A stretch of DNA of 64,000 nt from Halarcobacter sp. (GTDB lineage Bacteria > Campylobacterota > Campylobacteria > Campylobacterales > Arcobacteraceae). The notes under the pieces are model-generated. The model was not told the origin of the DNA. It did no database searches and saw only the letters and a program-made list of their open reading frames with translations. Of the stretch, positions 9,607 through 18,095 are shown piece after piece. Every line of letters starts with the position of its first letter. Positions within the stretch are counted from its first letter, which is position 1. Position numbers and translations under genes: made by a program. The DNA lies in the NCBI GenBank assembly GCA_048571215.1, contig CP182352.1, positions 1,792,001 to 1,856,000 of the forward strand, written 5' to 3'.

Positions 9607-9876
9607 CTAATCATGAGCTTGTTGTCTGTGTTTAAAATCAACAACAGCTACAATAAGCTTATTACCCTCAATAAGATAAAAAAGTCTATAATTTCCAATT
9701 CTATATCTATAATAGCCTTCAAGATTATCTTTTAACTTTTTAATATTTGTTCCATAAAAAGGGTTTTCTCTAAGTTGAGGATAAACAAAGTTTTCAATTT
9801 TTGAATAAAGCTTTTTATCTATCTTTTTTTTAACTTTTTCAAAAGTTTTAGTTTCTGCAATTTGATACTTAGACAA
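9607..9876 (-). CDS. RelE/ParE family toxin
   Basis: IKKLK...YRYRIGNYRLFY...VVDFKHR; probable TTG start at 9876 overlapping the antitoxin stop. Confidence 0.88.
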   Translation of the reverse strand: MSKYQIAETKTFEKVKKKIDKKLYSKIENFVYPQLRENPFYGTNIKKLKDNLEGYYRYRIGNYRLFYLIEGNKLIVAVVDFKHRQQAHD

Positions 9877-10105
9877 TTGTATAGTCACCTTTTTTGAAAT
9901 CTTCTAGTCCATCCATAAGGTTTTTTACAAGCTCTTTATCATTCATAATTTCAGCCATTTCATCATTTTCTACAAATTGTGAAGATGTCAAGTATTGCAT
10001 TGTTGCAAACTCTATGAAATTTGAAAGATTTCTTTTTTGACCTTCAGCTGCAAGTTTTATCATATCGTAAACTGAATCATCTACTCTCATAGTTACTGTT
10101 TTCAT
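9869..10105 (-). CDS. Ribbon-helix-helix antitoxin
   Basis: MKTVTMRVDDSVYDMIKLAAEGQKRNLSNFIE RHH pattern, acidic C-terminus, upstream of the toxin. Confidence 0.85.
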   Translation of the reverse strand: MKTVTMRVDDSVYDMIKLAAEGQKRNLSNFIEFATMQYLTSSQFVENDEMAEIMNDKELVKNLMDGLEDFKKGDYTIV

Positions 10106-10134
10106 AATATATCCTTTGAATATTTATTAATACT

Positions 10135-10163
10135 ATTGTATTCAATTTTATTCATTTTGTCAA
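10135..10163 (-). promoter_or_regulatory. Sigma70-type promoter of the TA operon
   Basis: TTGACA-17 bp-TACAAT on the minus strand. Confidence 0.75.
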
Positions 10164-10176
10164 TTGAAGATGTTTC

Positions 10177-10247
10177 ATATAACGGTTGACTTGAGAAATA
10201 TTTGACCCGCACTTGGGTCAAATATTCGCTCCAGCATTTTGTTATCT
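10177..10247 (-). mobile_element. attC site
   Basis: Minus strand AGATAAC-AAAATGCTGGAGCG-AATATTTGACCC..GGGTCAAATATT-TCTCAAGTCAACC-GTTATAT; R'' overlaps the upstream stop codon. Confidence 0.88.
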
Positions 10248-10544
10248 AATAATATATTTGATGTGCGTACCAATTTTATTATTTTTAATAATATCTATAA
10301 ATTGTTTTATCGAAACTTCTTGTTCAGATTTTATATAATCTCCACTCCATATTGAAGTAAATGTTATTCCATTTTTTGAATAATTGAAAATTTTATTTAA
10401 TTCATTAGATATATGAGCCAACTTACTTTTTTCAAAAATCCAAAATTCATCATTCCAATCAGCTTCATCTGAAAGAAAATCATGTAAATTAATATGCATC
10501 TTTTCGTAAGTATCCATTAAAATAATTTCAGTAATTAAACTCAT
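10242..10544 (-). CDS. Hypothetical cassette protein
   Basis: 100-aa ORF with AAAGGA RBS, bounded by two attC sites. Confidence 0.7.
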   Translation of the reverse strand: MSLITEIILMDTYEKMHINLHDFLSDEADWNDEFWIFEKSKLAHISNELNKIFNYSKNGITFTSIWSGDYIKSEQEVSIKQFIDIIKNNKIGTHIKYIIR

Positions 10545-10560
10545 GGTAATTTTTCCTTTT

Positions 10561-10614
10561 AAATAACCTTTGACTTCAGTGACGCTCTGTGTTCACTGCG
10601 AGGATTTGTTATGA
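10561..10614 (-). mobile_element. attC site (short, 54 bp)
   Basis: TCATAAC-AAATC-CTCGCAGTGAAC..GTCACTGAAG-TCAAAG-GTTATTT. Confidence 0.82.
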
Positions 10615-11435
10615 GATTTTTTAATTTCATCCATTGTTTTAAATATTGATTTTACCCAATGGAAATCTGCATCCCACGAACCAGAGGGTGAAATAAGTAC
10701 ACCTAAAGGACCATCATGATTTAAATAATCTAAGACTTCAGAGTATTTTAAATCAATTATAATATTCCCACACATGCCAGGACTAACTTCATATTCACTA
10801 AATAGAAATTCTATGCTTTCATTTTTAATGAAAAACCTAGGTATAAAACTAGGTTCGTCAAATCTACTAAAAAAGTCACAATCATTTTTATTTTTAATAA
10901 TATTTTTCACTTCTTCAAGTGCATTACGTTTAGCATCAAAAACATCAAAAAAATCAAAATAATTGTTAGTCTTTGGGTTGATGTTAATTGACCATACCGA
11001 ATTATTTCCATTTAGTGCAGGATAATGGAAAGTATACTGAGTCATTTTTATAGATAATAAATTTGGGGAAATAATTCCTTTTTCATAATTAGAATTGTAA
11101 ATTATAAGGTCTTCAGTTATTGACTGAAGGACATTTTCTTTTATTTCATTATTAATATAATCCAAGAATTTATTGGAAAAAAATGGATAAATAATTTGAG
11201 GATAAAAGATATTATCTATTTCTCTATCATGTCCAGCATATTTTATGTCTTTAAATGTATAAGGATAATCTATTTTCTTTACTTCCAAGGAGTTGAAAAC
11301 ATAATCTTCAATAATAGTGCTTATCTTTAATGTTGCAAACGAAGTTAATGGAATTATTATTGCAAGAACTAAACCAATATAACTTGCTTTACTTGGTATA
11401 GACCATTTTGACCACTGCCGTATACTTGGAATCAT
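10593..11435 (-). CDS. Membrane-anchored DUF3298/RsiV-like cassette protein
   Basis: N-terminal TM; YPQI..INNEIK, LLSI and FFIKNESIEFLFSEYEVSPG motifs; ORF reads into the attC. Confidence 0.65.
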   Translation of the reverse strand: MIPSIRQWSKWSIPSKASYIGLVLAIIIPLTSFATLKISTIIEDYVFNSLEVKKIDYPYTFKDIKYAGHDREIDNIFYPQIIYPFFSNKFLDYINNEIKENVLQSITEDLIIYNSNYEKGIISPNLLSIKMTQYTFHYPALNGNNSVWSININPKTNNYFDFFDVFDAKRNALEEVKNIIKNKNDCDFFSRFDEPSFIPRFFIKNESIEFLFSEYEVSPGMCGNIIIDLKYSEVLDYLNHDGPLGVLISPSGSWDADFHWVKSIFKTMDEIKKSHNKSSQ

Positions 11436-11464: not shown

Positions 11465-11500
11465 CTCATAACTATTTATTCAACATACATTATATATAAA
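11465..11500 (-). mobile_element. attI-like site 1
   Basis: Minus strand TATATAATGTATGTTGAATAAATAG|TTATGAG; core is the exact complement of this cassette's R'' (CTCATAAC); no attC hairpin upstream. Confidence 0.75.
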
Positions 11501-11718
11501 ACACCCTAAAAATTAATAAATAACATACACAAAACATGTCGTATATTAAGACAACAAGAATTACCTAAAATAGAGAGTTCTTACGTATTTCAGTATAAAA
11601 AATATTGCAATATGTCATATTTTTTAAATTTATTTTAAGTTTTTAATATAGTTTTTATGTTCATTTATTATCGATATTTAGATGATAATAGTACATTGTG
11701 TATGTATATTATGTCAAT

Positions 11719-11746
11719 ATCGTGATAAACCTACATTATGTTAAAT
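11719..11746 (+). other. dif-like sequence with a perfect XerD-arm match
   Basis: ATCGTGATAAACCTACATTATGTTAAAT; last 11 bp equal the canonical XerD arm TTATGTTAAAT. Confidence 0.35.
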
Positions 11747-11763
11747 TTATTGAGAGGTATATT

Positions 11764-11805
11764 ATGGATAAAAAACTATTAGATATTATGAGAGATAAAT
11801 TCTAA
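11764..11805 (+). pseudogene. intI: 5' stub of an integron integrase gene
   Basis: GAGAGG RBS then MDKKLLDIMRDKF*, resembling the IntI N-terminus (KLLD..R..IR.KHYS); divergent from the cassettes, ~290 bp from attI-like site 1. Confidence 0.68.
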
Positions 11806-11810
11806 ATATT

Positions 11811-12086
11811 CACTTTTTTATTGAAAAAAGTAAAATAAAAACAACCCACAGATTTCGAAGGTGAAACTTCCCTCGCTTATTATTTCACTTTTCTGTTTTT
11901 CAAAACTCGCTCTTGTGCTTGCACTCTCTGTGAGAAAACGTAAGTTAGTTACGTTTTTTTACGCTCTAACAGTTGAAAAACTTTTCCGAAAAGCAAAATA
12001 AACACTCGGCTTCTCAAATGCGGGAAGGTGGGATAAGGACCTTTGCATTTTTTATACCATTTTATTTAAGCTGGTGTGATACTCAA
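11811..12086 (-). repeat. Structured repeat X, copy 1
   Basis: Similar copies at 12419, 15256 and 15848; nested inverted repeats. Confidence 0.9.
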
Positions 12087-12095
12087 TTACTAAGA

Positions 12096-12382
12096 GAAAG
12101 TTCGAGGCTAGAGTATTTGTCCAGACTTTGTTGAAGCCGGAAGTTTTCTAATTATTTTCGGAGAAGACCGAGGACCGTTCAACTGGATAAAAGGTACTGA
12201 ATGTACCTTTTAGGAAAGCGTTCCGCAGGTCAGGAAATAATTATAAAACTGTAGGGAACTTTAGCTTCGACAACCGTCTGGTGGCTTTTGTTTTACTTTT
12301 ACCACTAAAAGTAAAGAAAGCGAAGAACTTGTTCTTCAAGACAATTGCATACAATAAAAACTATTTTCAAAATATTTGAGTG
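12096..12382 (+). repeat. Structured repeat Y, copy 1
   Basis: Nested stems CCAGAC/GTCTGG, TTGTTGAAGC/GCTTCGACAA, AAAAGGTAC/GTACCTTTT; near-identical copy at 15522. Confidence 0.9.
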
Positions 12383-12418
12383 TGATTAAATTTTTACTGT
12401 ACGTCTTAACTTATTCCG

Positions 12419-12705
12419 ACTTTCTTTTATGAAAAAGAAAGTAGCAAAGAAACCATCCTACAGGTTTCGAAAGTGAAACTTCCCTCGCTTATTACTTATC
12501 CTTTTTGAGTGACTAAAAACTTGCTCTTGTGCTTGCACTCTCTGTGAGAAAACGTGAGTTAGTCACGTTTTTTTACGCTTCAAACAGTTTAGTCACTTGT
12601 TTTCAAAAGAGATAAATAAACACTCGGCTTCTCAAATGCGGGAAGATGGGAAACTGACCTTTGCATTTTTTAATACCATTTTATTTTAGTTGGTGTAATA
12701 CTCAA
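12419..12705 (-). repeat. Structured repeat X, copy 2
   Basis: Aligns by eye to copy 1, with compensatory stem changes. Confidence 0.9.
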
Positions 12706-12720
12706 CAATTATTATAAAAG

Positions 12721-12748
12721 TGGAGATTCATCCTCTAGGGTGTTATTT
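12721..12748 (-). mobile_element. Truncated attC (R'' side only)
   Basis: AAATAACACCCTAGAGGATGAATC just after the stop codon, then repeat X. Confidence 0.5.
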
Positions 12749-12752
12749 CGAA

Positions 12753-13430
12753 TTATTCTATATTTAGTAATGGATTTTCTTTATTGTTTTTTGTTAAATT
12801 TTCTAAAAGAGCATTTTTCTCATCTTTTTTTTCTTGATAATCTTTTTGTAATTCTTTATAATTATTTAATGTTTCTTCAGTCTCTTCTCTATCTAAGTAT
12901 GAAGGTAAGTTTAGTAACATCTCTGTATATGTTTCTATTATATTTTCGAGAAATTTTTCTATATCTAAGTTTTTATAATCATCATTACTAAGAGATGTAT
13001 AATTCCCTTGGGCTTCATCCACCGATATAGTTGGCCAAGGAAACTGTCTATTTCCTGCTTCATATTCAATGTTATGTTTGATTTCATCAAAGTAAAGGCC
13101 TGGATACTCTTTTGTTTTCATCGTTTCAAATAAAGTTTTATTAAAATCATCATCATTGCTGAAATTTGTAACTTGCAATAATGCACTTCCAAAAGAAATT
13201 CTCTGATCTCCATTTTTTGATTCTTCTAAATAACTATTCTCTTCGAGCTTTTTTCTTAATTCTTTTGCTTCTTCATAACTTAAATCTTTTAATTCAGATT
13301 CATCTATAAATACATTTAAATTACCTTCTTTATTAATTATATTTTCAAATAGATCATTTACTTTGGCAGAGCTTTCTGATTTCAAGTCACTCTGATAATT
13401 CGGGGATACCTGTGTTGTATTAATTACCAT
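12753..13430 (-). CDS. Hypothetical acidic cassette protein
   Basis: 225-aa ORF with AAGGAG RBS immediately after an attC R' core. Confidence 0.75.
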   Translation of the reverse strand: MVINTTQVSPNYQSDLKSESSAKVNDLFENIINKEGNLNVFIDESELKDLSYEEAKELRKKLEENSYLEESKNGDQRISFGSALLQVTNFSNDDDFNKTLFETMKTKEYPGLYFDEIKHNIEYEAGNRQFPWPTISVDEAQGNYTSLSNDDYKNLDIEKFLENIIETYTEMLLNLPSYLDREETEETLNNYKELQKDYQEKKDEKNALLENLTKNNKENPLLNIE

Positions 13431-13448
13431 TTTATTTACTCCTTATAT

Positions 13449-13583
13449 GGATAACGTTTGAACTTGAAAAACAAGGGTACAATAGCACTTGATTATTTCA
13501 ATTTTCATTTTAGCTTTTTTGTTCTAAAAAACTTAAATAAACCACTGTATACCCTTGTTTTTATTTCCAAAGTTTTATTAGAG
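13449..13583 (-). mobile_element. attC site (long, R'' mutated to CTCTAAT)
   Basis: CTCTAAT-AAAACTTTGGAAATAAAAACAAGGGTA...TACCCTTGTTTTTCAAGTTCAAAC-GTTATCC; R'' complements the cassette start GTTAGAG at 6/7. Confidence 0.8.
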
Positions 13584-13588
13584 GTTCT

Positions 13589-14269
13589 TTAAAGTTTAAT
13601 TGCTTTTGTAATAGCAAAATTATACATTCTCCAATAACAAGCACTTTGTTGAAATCCAACTTCTTTTAACCAATCAAAATGATTTGATAAAATAATTGGA
13701 AAATCTTTTTCAATATGTTTTTCATACCAAAACTCTGGGTTTTCACCTTGCTCTTTCATAAACTGTTTCCAAAGAGAATATTGATGTTCTCTAACATCTT
13801 TATCTTCATCTATGATAATATCATTTGAGATATAAACTGCATTTTGATTTGCACTATTAAAAAGTTTTTGATAAAAAACTTTTCTCTCTTCCCAATTTAG
13901 ATGATGTAGTGTCATACCTGTTAAAATTATATCATATGATTTTCCAATTGAATCTATTTTATAATCCCCTTGAATTAATTCATAGTTATTTGTATATTTT
14001 GATATTTTTTGTTCGTAAGCATCTAGCATTTCAGTAGTAATATCAAATCCAGTGATATGTGAATTTGGAAGTTTCTTTAAAACAATTTCAGATAATACAC
14101 CATTACCACAACCTAAATCCAATATTCTATAGTTTTTATTTTTATCACTTGGTAATAAATCAGATATGATTTTATGTTGTTCCAAATATTGTGGAACCAA
14201 TCTAGTCATCAATGCTTCATAATCAGAAGCTTGTTTTGCGAAATGTTCTTGTACATTTATATCTTTCAT
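13589..14269 (-). CDS. Class I SAM-dependent methyltransferase (cassette)
   Basis: ILDLGCGNG motif I, GFDI, YDIIL..MTLHHL. Confidence 0.88.
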   Translation of the reverse strand: MKDINVQEHFAKQASDYEALMTRLVPQYLEQHKIISDLLPSDKNKNYRILDLGCGNGVLSEIVLKKLPNSHITGFDITTEMLDAYEQKISKYTNNYELIQGDYKIDSIGKSYDIILTGMTLHHLNWEERKVFYQKLFNSANQNAVYISNDIIIDEDKDVREHQYSLWKQFMKEQGENPEFWYEKHIEKDFPIILSNHFDWLKEVGFQQSACYWRMYNFAITKAIKL

Positions 14270-14275
14270 TTTATC

Positions 14276-14344
14276 CTCTAACGTTTAAAATGAGCCGATG
14301 AATTGCCTGTAGGGTAATTTATTAGCTCTCCTGATTTGTTATAT
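14276..14344 (-). mobile_element. attC site
   Basis: ATATAAC-AAATCAGGAGAGCTAATAAATTACC..GGCAATTCATCGGCTCATTTTAAAC-GTTAGAG. Confidence 0.88.
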
Positions 14345-14353
14345 TTATCATGT

Positions 14354-15028
14354 CTAATAGACCTCCATATATATAACTTTTAATTTTTGTATCAACCCTT
14401 TTTTGTTAAATTTAATCTCAATTTTACCATTGGCATTATAGTAGTAATATTTACAGTTAATAGGCTCCTTATTACGTATATCTTGCTGAAGCATTATTTT
14501 TAGTTGTTTATTTGGTAATTTCAATCTTTTTTCGTAAAGATATTCTTGTTTCGCATCTGTTGCTAATGTAGGGTTCTGTAAATATTTTGATATTTGTTGT
14601 CTATTCATTCCAACTGCTAGACCAGATTTTGTACTGATACCTTGATATAGTTTATCGGTTTCTATGCAATGAGTTTGATTAATTTCTTGAGAATCGTCTG
14701 TAATTGAAAATCCATAGTAGTCCCAACCAGCATATTTATAATAAATTACTCCTACGCTTCTGTCTCTTGAAATATAACATGCTTCTTCATCACAAGAAGC
14801 ACATCCAGGTTTTCGCTTAAACGAATTGATCTCACCATAATATTTTTTTAAATCTTCAAAACTATGCTTGCCTATTGTTAGTCCAAGTAAAGTTTTATGT
14901 GATTCGTCCATTGTCATGCCAGAGACTTTGTTATCAACTTCAAGAACAGAAGGTGACAACTGACACAACTCATCATTTGCATAAACATTGACAAATATCA
15001 GTAAGCTCAATGTTAATAAAAGTCTCAT
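14354..15028 (-). CDS. Hypothetical secreted cassette protein
   Basis: Signal peptide, several Cys residues, GGAG RBS; first cassette after attI-like site 2. Confidence 0.75.
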   Translation of the reverse strand: MRLLLTLSLLIFVNVYANDELCQLSPSVLEVDNKVSGMTMDESHKTLLGLTIGKHSFEDLKKYYGEINSFKRKPGCASCDEEACYISRDRSVGVIYYKYAGWDYYGFSITDDSQEINQTHCIETDKLYQGISTKSGLAVGMNRQQISKYLQNPTLATDAKQEYLYEKRLKLPNKQLKIMLQQDIRNKEPINCKYYYYNANGKIEIKFNKKGLIQKLKVIYMEVY

Positions 15029-15043
15029 TATCTAGTCTCCATT

Positions 15044-15080
15044 AATATAACTATTTATTGAATATACATTATATAAATAA
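15044..15080 (-). mobile_element. attI-like site 2
   Basis: TATATAATGTATATTCAATAAATAG|TTATATT, nearly identical to site 1; core complements this cassette's R'' (AATATAAC). Confidence 0.75.
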
Positions 15081-15208
15081 AGTACTTAAATACACTAATT
15101 TATTATATATTTGCAAAGAAAGGTTGTTTTATGCATGTTTATAGAAAAGATATTACATAATGTCAAAATCTAATTTTAAAGTACATTTTTTATAATTTAG
15201 AAATAGTT

Positions 15209-15250
15209 GTAGATAAAAAACTATTTGATATTATCTGAAATAAATTTTAA
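15209..15250 (+). pseudogene. intI: Second, more decayed intI 5' stub
   Basis: GTA GAT AAA AAA CTA TTT GAT ATT ATC TGA AAT AAA TTT TAA aligns to 11764-11805 and has the same junction to repeat X. Confidence 0.6.
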
Positions 15251-15255
15251 ATATT

Positions 15256-15511
15256 CACTTTTTTATTAAAAAAAGTAAAATAAAAATAACCCGCGGGTTT
15301 CGAAGGTGAAACTACCCTCGCTTATTATTTATTGTTTCTGTTTTGTAAAACTCACATAAAAATATGCTCCTAGCATATTTGTTCTGTTCAAACAGTTACA
15401 AAACTATTTCGAAACAATAAATAAACACTCGGCTTCTCAAATGCAGGAAAGTGGGAAACTGACCTTTACATTTTTTTAGTACCATTTTTTTTGAATTGGT
15501 GTAATACTCAA
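15256..15511 (-). repeat. Structured repeat X, copy 3
   Basis: Same scaffold as copies 1 and 2, alternative apical hairpin AAATATGCT-CCT-AGCATATTT. Confidence 0.9.
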
Positions 15512-15521
15512 TTTATACAAA

Positions 15522-15813
15522 GAAAGTTTGTGGCTAGTGTATTTAGTCCAGACTTTGTTGAAGCCGGAAGTTTTCTAATTATTTTCGGAGAAGACCGAGG
15601 ACCGTTCAACTGGATAAAAGGTACTGAATGTACCTTTTAGGAAGGCGTTCCGCAGGTCAGAAGATAATTAGAAAACTGTAGGGGACTTTAGCTTCAACAA
15701 CGTGTCTGGTTGCTTTTTGCCATACTTTTTACAATTAAAAAGTATGAAAGCGGAGAGCTTTGCTCTACAAGACAACTGCATACAATAAAAACTATTATCA
15801 AAATATTTGAGTG
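15522..15813 (+). repeat. Structured repeat Y, copy 2
   Basis: Near-identical to 12096-12382. Confidence 0.9.
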
Positions 15814-15847
15814 TAAATAAACTTTTGCTGTACCTCTTGGCTTTCTC

Positions 15848-16107
15848 AACTTTCTTTTGTAAAAAAGAAAGTAGCAAAGAAATTATCCCGCAGGTTTCGA
15901 AGGTGAAACTTCCCTCATTTATTATTTATTGTTTCTGTTTTGTAAAACTCACATAAAAATATGCTCCTAGCATATTTGTTCTGTTCAAACAGTTACAAAA
16001 CTTTTCCGAAACAATAAATAAACACTCGGCTTCTCAAATGCGGGAAGGTGGGATAAGGACCTTTGCATTTTTTAGTACCATTTTATTTGTATTGGTGAGA
16101 TACTCAA
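15848..16107 (-). repeat. Structured repeat X, copy 4
   Basis: Near-identical to copy 3. Confidence 0.9.
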
Positions 16108-16117
16108 TATATATTTT

Positions 16118-16183
16118 GAAAGTTCAAGGCTAGAGCATTTCAGTCCAGACTTTGTTGAAGCCGGAAGTTTTCTAATTATTTTC
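16118..16183 (+). repeat. Structured repeat Y, truncated copy 3
   Basis: GAAAGTTCAAGGCTAGAG...CCAGACTTTGTTGAAGCCGGAAGTTTTCTAATTATTTTC, then similarity stops. Confidence 0.85.
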
Positions 16184-17960: not shown

Positions 17961-17975
17961 AGTTAACTATTTATT
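17961..17975 (-). mobile_element. attI-like site 3 (partial)
   Basis: AATAAATAG|TTAACT shares the proximal bases of sites 1 and 2, then is fused to an X fragment. Confidence 0.5.
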
Positions 17976-18095
17976 ATTCATCCATTTTGAGTACATAAAA
18001 ACTTGCTCTTGTGCTTGTAGACAAAAAAGTTAGAAAGCATACCCACGTTCAGTGGGTGTAAAAAAGCGAAGAACATTAGTTCTTAAAGACAAAAT
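17971..18095. repeat. Remnants of repeats X and Y
   Basis: TTATTATTCATCCATTTTGAGTACATAAAAACTTGCTCTTGTGCTTG matches X copy 2; AAAGCGAAGAAC..GTTCTTAAAGACAA matches the end of Y. Confidence 0.75.

Follow-up and report, generated by a model that had tools for sequence, protein, structure and literature searches.

The DNA analyzed here, 64,000 nucleotides of the chromosome of Halarcobacter sp. (GenBank assembly GCA_048571215.1, contig CP182352.1, positions 1,792,001 to 1,856,000; hereafter the window), carries two arrays of a large non-coding repeat that occurs in two forms, X and Y. X and Y are homologous, share a covarying fold, vary in copy number between genomes and are entered by IS110 elements whose guides match the insertion sites, and X stands at the cut 5′ end of the integron integrase gene, intI. 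The best explanation, to which as a whole we would give about an even chance, is that X/Y is a folded element resembling repetitive extragenic palindromic (REP) sequences, likely spread as single-stranded DNA (ssDNA) by an enzyme encoded elsewhere, that it serves as a landing pad for IS110, and that it is likely a portable end by which integrase-less integron platforms multiply. An earlier note on this DNA, made from its letters alone, had described the arrays and the fold and missed the unity of X and Y, the triple-helix pseudoknot, the targeting by IS110 and the fusion to attI platforms. Literature searches, with most subscription papers outside their scope, returned no description of the X/Y element, its third strand or the attI fusion.

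Arrays, fold and distribution of X and Y

The host genome is complete (3.61 Mb, 28.5% GC). An X-Y-X module spans 11811-12705 of the window and an X-Y-X-Y′ module spans 15256-16183, with start-to-start spacings of 612-618 and 597, which bears out the layout and the period of about 600 bp given in the earlier note. Its statement that the modules hold no credible open reading frame (ORF) is also correct, the sole ORF of at least 60 amino acids (aa) inside them being a 69-aa frame with a TTG start. Read on the minus strand, X is homologous to Y read on the plus strand, with profile cross-matches mostly at E 1e-17 to 1e-36. What stands of the earlier view of X and Y as two repeats is the distinction of two subtypes; sequence comparison makes them subtypes of one non-coding element of ~260 nt, mutually inverted. 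Because X is an inverted homolog of Y, the arrays are head-to-head pairs, with ~10 nt separating 5′ ends and ~75 nt separating 3′ ends, and their alternation resembles that of bacterial interspersed mosaic elements (BIMEs).

The 63 pairs of the structure model of Y fall into a pair of closing helices, a stem of 18 bp, a tip that can be exchanged, a hairpin on the 3′ side and a pseudoknot of 4 bp. Across 32 Y copies from ~20 genomes, 94.6% of 1983 cells pair (37-55% in slid controls), 45 of the 63 pairs vary on both sides and none of 500 shuffles matches the fold, although related copies in these counts are not independent. The corresponding value for 27 X copies is 82.9%, against 43-56% in slid controls, and X and Y share helices despite their differing sequences. 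Subtype structure dominates the signal of unguided mutual information. The stem covariation reported earlier was recovered, with all eight of the arms then quoted at the expected places. The strand assignment of the mismatches held as well, G-T outnumbering A-C by 96 to 26 on the Y plus strand and by 88 to 56 on the X minus strand. These strands also fold better than their complements in all 22 Y copies and in 26 of the 31 X copies, although the z-scores of minimum free energy for single copies are uneven (−4.9 and −7.2 for Y, −1.7 to −5.1 for X). The pairing and covariation in Y agree with the conserved single-strand fold that the earlier note had proposed, and the predicted one-strand fold of X/Y is a long rod followed by a 3′ pseudoknot. 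The tip carries a tandem G.A cap with a hairpin; AYGGAY loops, as in the Rfam motif TwoAYGGAY (RF01731), are absent from the alignments.

With one structure model, this genome contains 65 copies, and profiles register 31 near-full X and 22 near-full Y. They form 37 arrays, the largest of six units, and many copies are truncated or interrupted by IS110. The Y covariance model matches 22 of 25 genomes of the genus with 1-65 copies each, a range of 0-65 over all 25. In a sample that covered the order, 3 of the 140 genomes outside the family have a match to it; BLAST with a single Y gave no match outside the family among 285 genomes of the phylum. One orthologous site shows presence and absence of the element between genomes. 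This conduct, with multiple copies, inverted alternation and a variable copy number, is that of the non-autonomous element resembling BIMEs or REP doublets forming hairpins (REPINs) that the earlier note had envisaged.

Beyond the family, a motif scan of GTDB found at least 124 loci, and the 80 that were listed span Proteobacteria, Bacteroidota, Firmicutes, Nitrospirota, Patescibacteria and Geobacter. Within these 80 loci the Y model has 30 matches with E no higher than 0.05, the best being 1e-10, the loci having been pre-selected by motifs that the Y model contains, and 12 of the 15 listed loci with multiple matches hold a divergent pair. Neighbors of the scaffold in distant phyla are unrelated, mainly housekeeping host genes. 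By eye, arrays of 5-6-mer repeats were seen upstream of a few distant copies (L111, L116), and in a Flavobacterium record a G.A-capped element is followed immediately, on its 3′ side, by a match to Flavo-1 RNA (L155:2621-2695).

The 3′ end of X/Y is predicted to be a pseudoknot with a parallel triple helix. A T-rich tract between the two pseudoknot stems and the A-rich arm of the final hairpin read in parallel, and in the 140 modules that could be parsed from 147 listed GTDB copies, T of the tract faces A at 774 of 790 places and C faces G at 84 of 90. For X, of which 57 out of 73 copies could be parsed, C faces G in 32 of 33 cases. The positions shift together: where G lies 4, 5 or 6 bases from the arm end, C is found at the matching place in 114 of 120 modules, and this fixed register favors a third strand over an alternative hairpin. 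Among metagenome contigs, 95 modules classified by tip comprise 21 that are G.A-capped, 10 with two AYGGAY-like loops and 64 others, some of which may be chance matches. Through this prediction, a repeat of many phyla would be linked to a three-dimensional motif open to test, a triple helix formed naturally by a single strand and covarying very strongly.

The same fold suits a different role, which we regard as a tentative possibility: X/Y may work as structured RNA, expressed from a built-in or upstream promoter, with the knot shielding the 3′ end or docking and the exchangeable tip (tandem G.A cap or AYGGAY loops) binding protein. The H-type pseudoknot topology with its covarying pyrimidine third strand and the one-strand excess of G-T over A-C are in its favor, and the kin motif TwoAYGGAY is graded "probably" an RNA in the accessible part of its description (PMC2864571). 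Of 73 X copies, 47 have promoter-like hexamers at the 5′ end, and these count both for an RNA and against spread as ssDNA. To the same side belongs the architecture as such, since pseudoknots whose U-rich loop occupies the major groove are classic for RNA. The cap may resemble a K-turn, and the AYGGAY loops may be CsrA-like. Other features argue against a role as RNA. Among the 147 listed GTDB copies, which are distant ones, 131 have an apical cap made of a GNA triloop on a stem of 2 bp, a position left unconstrained in the search pattern. UUCG and GNRA loops are not enriched, with no cUUCGg and with GNRA in 9 of 214 tetraloops vs 6 of 174 in the flanks. G faces T-A inversions in 4 of 4 cases, and the weight of this count is lessened by its covering 4 loci from perhaps 2 lineages. 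GNA mini-hairpins and G.T-A triplets are DNA-type features. A range of 0-65 copies with viability kept is atypical for a needed RNA gene, and many copies are truncated or broken by IS110. Metatranscriptome contigs from one run, with a share of 0.13, which give no strand, ends or level and contain an X1-to-X3 joint that any other X copy could explain, were not used as evidence. An RNA role and REP-like spread can be compatible.

IS110 insertions and integron platforms

All seven IS110 transposase copies of the genome lie inside X or Y, at one position per subtype. Four identical copies share one X position, and three copies of a sister type (protein 63% identical) share one position in the tip stem of Y-type copies; the sister type is found in Y in relatives as well. 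The 5′ non-coding regions of these elements have the donor-side sequence in common and differ in the internal loop, whose two strands bear the left and right target halves. In the bridge-RNA model of IS110 elements, as set out in the accessible part of its description (PMC11208160), left and right target guides match the insertion site. IS621 and ISPpu9/10, IS110 elements that target repeats, likewise have guides in the 5′ non-coding region that fit the insertion site, to judge from the available portions of their accounts; the present case is unlike them in that two sisters, whose donor loops are nearly identical, are each programmed for a different conserved position within a single large repeat. 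The targeting of X/Y is a new link, and it offers two IS110 bridge recombinases that nature has reprogrammed, as a pair, to separate sites within one repeat.

The fusion of X to attI at the cut 5′ end of intI is likewise a new link. The genome has one intact integron integrase (TIGR02249 above cut-off), and a profile of the attI region gives 19 matches in the genome, 16 of which are followed by X within 11-72 nt; of the others, one lies beside an X split by IS110, one belongs to the intact integron and one lacks X. Many of these sites are also recovered by BLAST when the query is the upstream region of the intact integron itself. G|TT stands at the end of homology in 18 of the 19 regions, an ORF lies 18-48 nt beyond attI in 12 of 19, and an attC-like site usually follows the ORF, judged mostly by eye; a scripted attC detector called 4 of 17 sites. 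The region flanking X has the make-up of an integron platform, in that its attI core reads G|TT, it is homologous to the sequence upstream of intI, and a cassette ORF and attC lie downstream. At the loci of the family as a whole, the attI region precedes an intact intI in 24 of 30. Seen from the repeat, this genome has 33 intact left ends of X, of which 15 adjoin an attI region, and modules stack as X-cassettes-attI-X. In relatives, at loci chosen for X/Y, 17 of 18 attI matches lie within 120 nt of an element, and cargo genes differ at orthologous sites.

In a 59-row tree of attI regions, those fused to X do not form a single clade (p-AU 9e-51, with at least 7 changes required), and one supported clade of 16 occupies many host loci; one row is Y-fused and another lies 184 nt away. 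Polyphyly together with one clade at many loci implies repeated fusion or exchange, plus later spread. Two considerations temper the view of X as a portable platform end: the polyphyly could also have arisen through recombination within the stub, in place of repeated insertion, and the attI profile was trained partly on X-adjacent regions, just as the loci in relatives were picked for X/Y.

Defective integrons flanked by miniature transposable elements with inverted repeats (MITEs), or integron mobilization units, form the comparison class. These and clusters of attC sites lacking an integrase (CALINs) have in common with the present platforms an attI with cassettes and a truncated intI beside a non-coding element of ~280 bp. 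They are unlike the 16 chromosomal platforms found here, which belong to several lineages within one genome and are capped by one structured repeat in which no terminal inverted repeats were seen. The stacking of modules and the number of X ends at attI would also be expected if X/Y were integron-specific mobilization units or giant attC-like sites processed by IntI, but we consider this very unlikely. X/Y lies within 1.5 kb of none of the 30 intact intI loci; two genomes, G012 and G023, carry copies and have no intI match; copies in distant phyla stand beside unrelated, mainly housekeeping genes; and inspection of the X/Y alignments revealed neither terminal inverted repeats nor the paired R″/R′ boxes of attC, a site that is further marked by an unpaired spacer, by an L box with extrahelical bases and by its place right behind a cassette gene. 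Ordinary attC-like sites stand apart, behind the cassettes. Integrons of the family lie at the 3′ ends of many different housekeeping genes and therefore appear mobile. Two other types of structured repeat lie directly 3′ of some intact intI genes (L385, L388, L398 and L405; L384, L399 and L403).

The window contains two of these platforms. The cassette array of platform 1 (9607-11435, minus strand) encodes proteins of 280 aa and 100 aa, followed by a ParE/YoeB-like toxin-antitoxin pair, with an attC-like site at ~10170-10250. Its attI core (G|TT at 11470-11472 on the minus strand) and integrase promoter region occupy 11470-11763 on the minus strand; over 330 nt, the sequence is 87% identical to that found upstream of the intact intI, and the nearest cassette ORF, the first, is 35 nt off. 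An intI stub of the first 12-13 codons (11764-11805, plus strand), which matches the N terminus of the intact IntI, ends where X1 starts. X1 (11811-12086) folds on the minus strand, with its pseudoknot/triple-helix module at 11811-11847 and a 23-nt hairpin insert at ~11912-11934. It is followed by Y1 (12095-12344, plus strand; module 12280-12312), by a Y-to-X linker of ~75 nt (12345-12418, plus strand) that by eye looks like a decayed integrase 5′ stub, and by X2 (12419-12705, minus strand; module 12419-12458). X2 has a promoter-like site at 12705-12678 and an IS110-A target at ~12451-12455, which is empty here and occupied in four other copies. A short repeat without assigned strand (12717-12748), with 11 exact-core copies in the genome, links X2 to the end of the next cassette array. 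That array, platform 2 (12753-15028, minus strand), has three cassette-like genes (224 aa, a 226-aa methyltransferase and 225 aa) and attC-like sites at ~14270-14345 and 13447-13582, and its attI core, with a shortened promoter region and a decayed integrase stub, lies at 15049-15250 on the minus strand. The second module then consists of X3 (15255-15511, minus strand; module 15256-15292), Y2 (15521-15775, plus strand; module 15708-15743), X4 (15849-16107, minus strand; module 15849-15888) and Y′ (16118-16183, plus strand), which by profile is the truncated 5′ quarter of Y (model positions 2-65). By eye, a third attI-like core, outside the 19 profile matches and without assigned strand, is joined straight to a collapsed X/Y remnant at 17965-18090; its genes (two ABM-type, one unknown and one MarR) extend back to Y′.

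Some smaller features accompany these platforms. Similar copies of the methyltransferase cassette occur at two platforms of this genome, at 13589-14269 of the window and at G000:C1:1719002-1719715. The 32-nt repeat at 12717-12748 is found at cassette-array ends beside X and also behind small genes of arrays of orphan fragments, and by inspection it is no full attC. Two hairpin mini-inserts of 20-23 nt (11912-11934 and 12526-12548) recur at several differing positions of X/Y, always beside a run of four T, and look like tiny mobile units in themselves.

Search for a mover

The reference system for a REP-like reading is that of REP/BIME/REPIN sequences with transposases of the RAYT (REP-associated tyrosine transposase) or TIRYT type, as presented in the available part of PMC3733652. 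To that extent X/Y resembles REP sequences in being extragenic and multicopy, in having two subtypes that alternate inverted with a short and a long linker, and in being a target of IS110. X/Y differs in its ~260 nt with tertiary structure, where REPs are palindromes of 20-40 nt, in showing no conserved GTAG/CGTC foot, and in having no transposase gene flanked by the element.

The earlier note had proposed a check for linked HUH/RAYT, reverse transcriptase (RT) or GIY-YIG genes, and no RAYT, RT or GIY-YIG gene was found linked to the element; GIY-YIG occurs only as a 610-aa ORF. A Y1_Tnp match is present in all six genomes with at least 11 copies vs 6 of the 19 others, a co-occurrence of little weight, since these proteins are of differing types and kin do not count as independent cases. 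Further findings weigh against a mover of this kind. The element flanks none of 46 Y1_Tnp loci, and the Y1_Tnp genes bear short GGGGWCAG-type flanks of their own. The only Y1 transposase of this genome, which is TIRYT-like, is interrupted by a premature stop codon; in two of the six high-copy genomes the only Y1_Tnp match is a long fusion protein, and one complete genome with 9 copies has no Y1_Tnp match. No transposase, integrase or RT family was present among the 73 neighbors scanned of 150 in distant phyla. In addition, neither a target duplication nor exact ends could be read, the empty orthologous sites being too diverged.

The Y1 transposase locus of this genome (G000:C1:2558911-2562246) adjoins arrays of orphan toxin-like C-terminal fragments (arrays at 807400-811800 and 2553800-2559100), whose short repeats share a stretch with the right end of IS110 and twice adjoin X fragments. 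In four genomes (L447, L448, L450 and L456) a Y1_Tnp-like domain is joined to a second domain in a protein of ~445 aa within a secretion-type gene cluster; this fusion is possibly a domesticated transposase.

Movement or activity through reverse transcription is improbable in our judgment. The conserved scaffold, exchangeable central hairpin and pseudoknot recall the UG27 non-coding RNA units, as far as the accessible part of their description goes (bioRxiv 10.64898/2026.09.22.753630), and X/Y might on that model be a retro-mobilized or retron/UG27-like RNA whose central rod is reverse transcribed; RVT_1, however, has no match in this genome or in the multicopy genomes G002, G003 and G006, and the scanned distant neighbors include no RT. 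An RT match in another genome (L030, G012:C1:1199000-1207000) lies ~1.3 kb from an attI-X-Y platform, on the cassette side, and is probably cargo.

For REP-like spread we envisage an enzyme encoded elsewhere. The fold would act as ssDNA, and an HUH transposase of the RAYT/TIRYT type would act on it in trans as the mover. Gene conversion may homogenize the copies and exchange tips and stems. Direct X repeats bracket units of cassettes, attI and stub, as X2 to X3 do in the window, and recombination between X sites could thus copy or swap such units, while the sole intact IntI would serve the X-fused platforms in trans.

Kinship with TwoAYGGAY and wider reading

At the gathering threshold, Rfam has no match in the window or for the element in 20 distant loci, where the only match was the Flavo-1 beside one distant copy, and matches ranked by E-value were those of chance. 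X/Y falls below the gathering threshold of RF01731 and lacks its two AYGGAY loops. The description of the element as unnamed in the earlier note stands in this respect; it does not extend to the 3′ module and the divergent doublets, which in the available part of its description (bioRxiv 10.64898/2026.09.22.753630) belong also to the extended TwoAYGGAY element. That element is portrayed there as multicopy and intergenic, with a strain-variable copy number, and as having a long basal stem with an inner hairpin, a 3′ pseudoknot and divergent doublets, all of them traits of X/Y in kind. Its doublets are divergent in 68%, and it is described mainly from Pseudomonadota; the accessible main text does not use the terms "triplex," "kink," "integron" or "Campylobacter." X/Y differs in its tandem G.A cap with a hairpin at the tip, the absence of AYGGAY loops and the lack of a match to RF01731.

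A profile of the 3′ module made from G.A-capped copies matches behind 9 of the 25 RF01731 loci, all within 2 of the 7 genomes, and not at the other 16 loci; it also matches an Aeromonas record that carries AYGGAY loops, and in this genome all 9 of its matches fall on X ends. Since the Y model itself gives only non-significant matches on TwoAYGGAY loci, the link runs via the 3′ module. A scripted test for the pseudoknot at the TwoAYGGAY loci, with 8 parsed, was negative (2.62 vs 2.76 shuffled); by eye, the pairing is visible at the loci L351, L358 and L375. None of 5 genomes that carry G.A-capped copies yielded RF01731, the controls being likewise silent, and a scan of viral contigs for the AYGGAY pattern gave chance matches only. 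X/Y are thus scaffold relatives of TwoAYGGAY rather than members of that family, and TwoAYGGAY is probably one tip on a wider scaffold. The R200 repeat of P. fluorescens SBW25, listed with 320 bp and 47 copies in the available part of PMC2718517, and an X/Y-type element may be the same thing.

It is conceivable, although we hold this wider view with reserve, that X/Y, TwoAYGGAY and further unnamed repeats are one pan-bacterial superfamily of non-autonomous elements, with a triple-helix pseudoknot end, exchangeable tips and a single-strand enzyme, and that in this bacterial family the element has captured attI platforms of integrons and spreads them over the chromosome. The X-attI fusion provides a possible route for the origin and multiplication of integrase-less integron platforms and bears on the turnover of accessory and defense genes. 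If the wider view holds true, one integrase becomes a distributed, multi-site gene-capture system.

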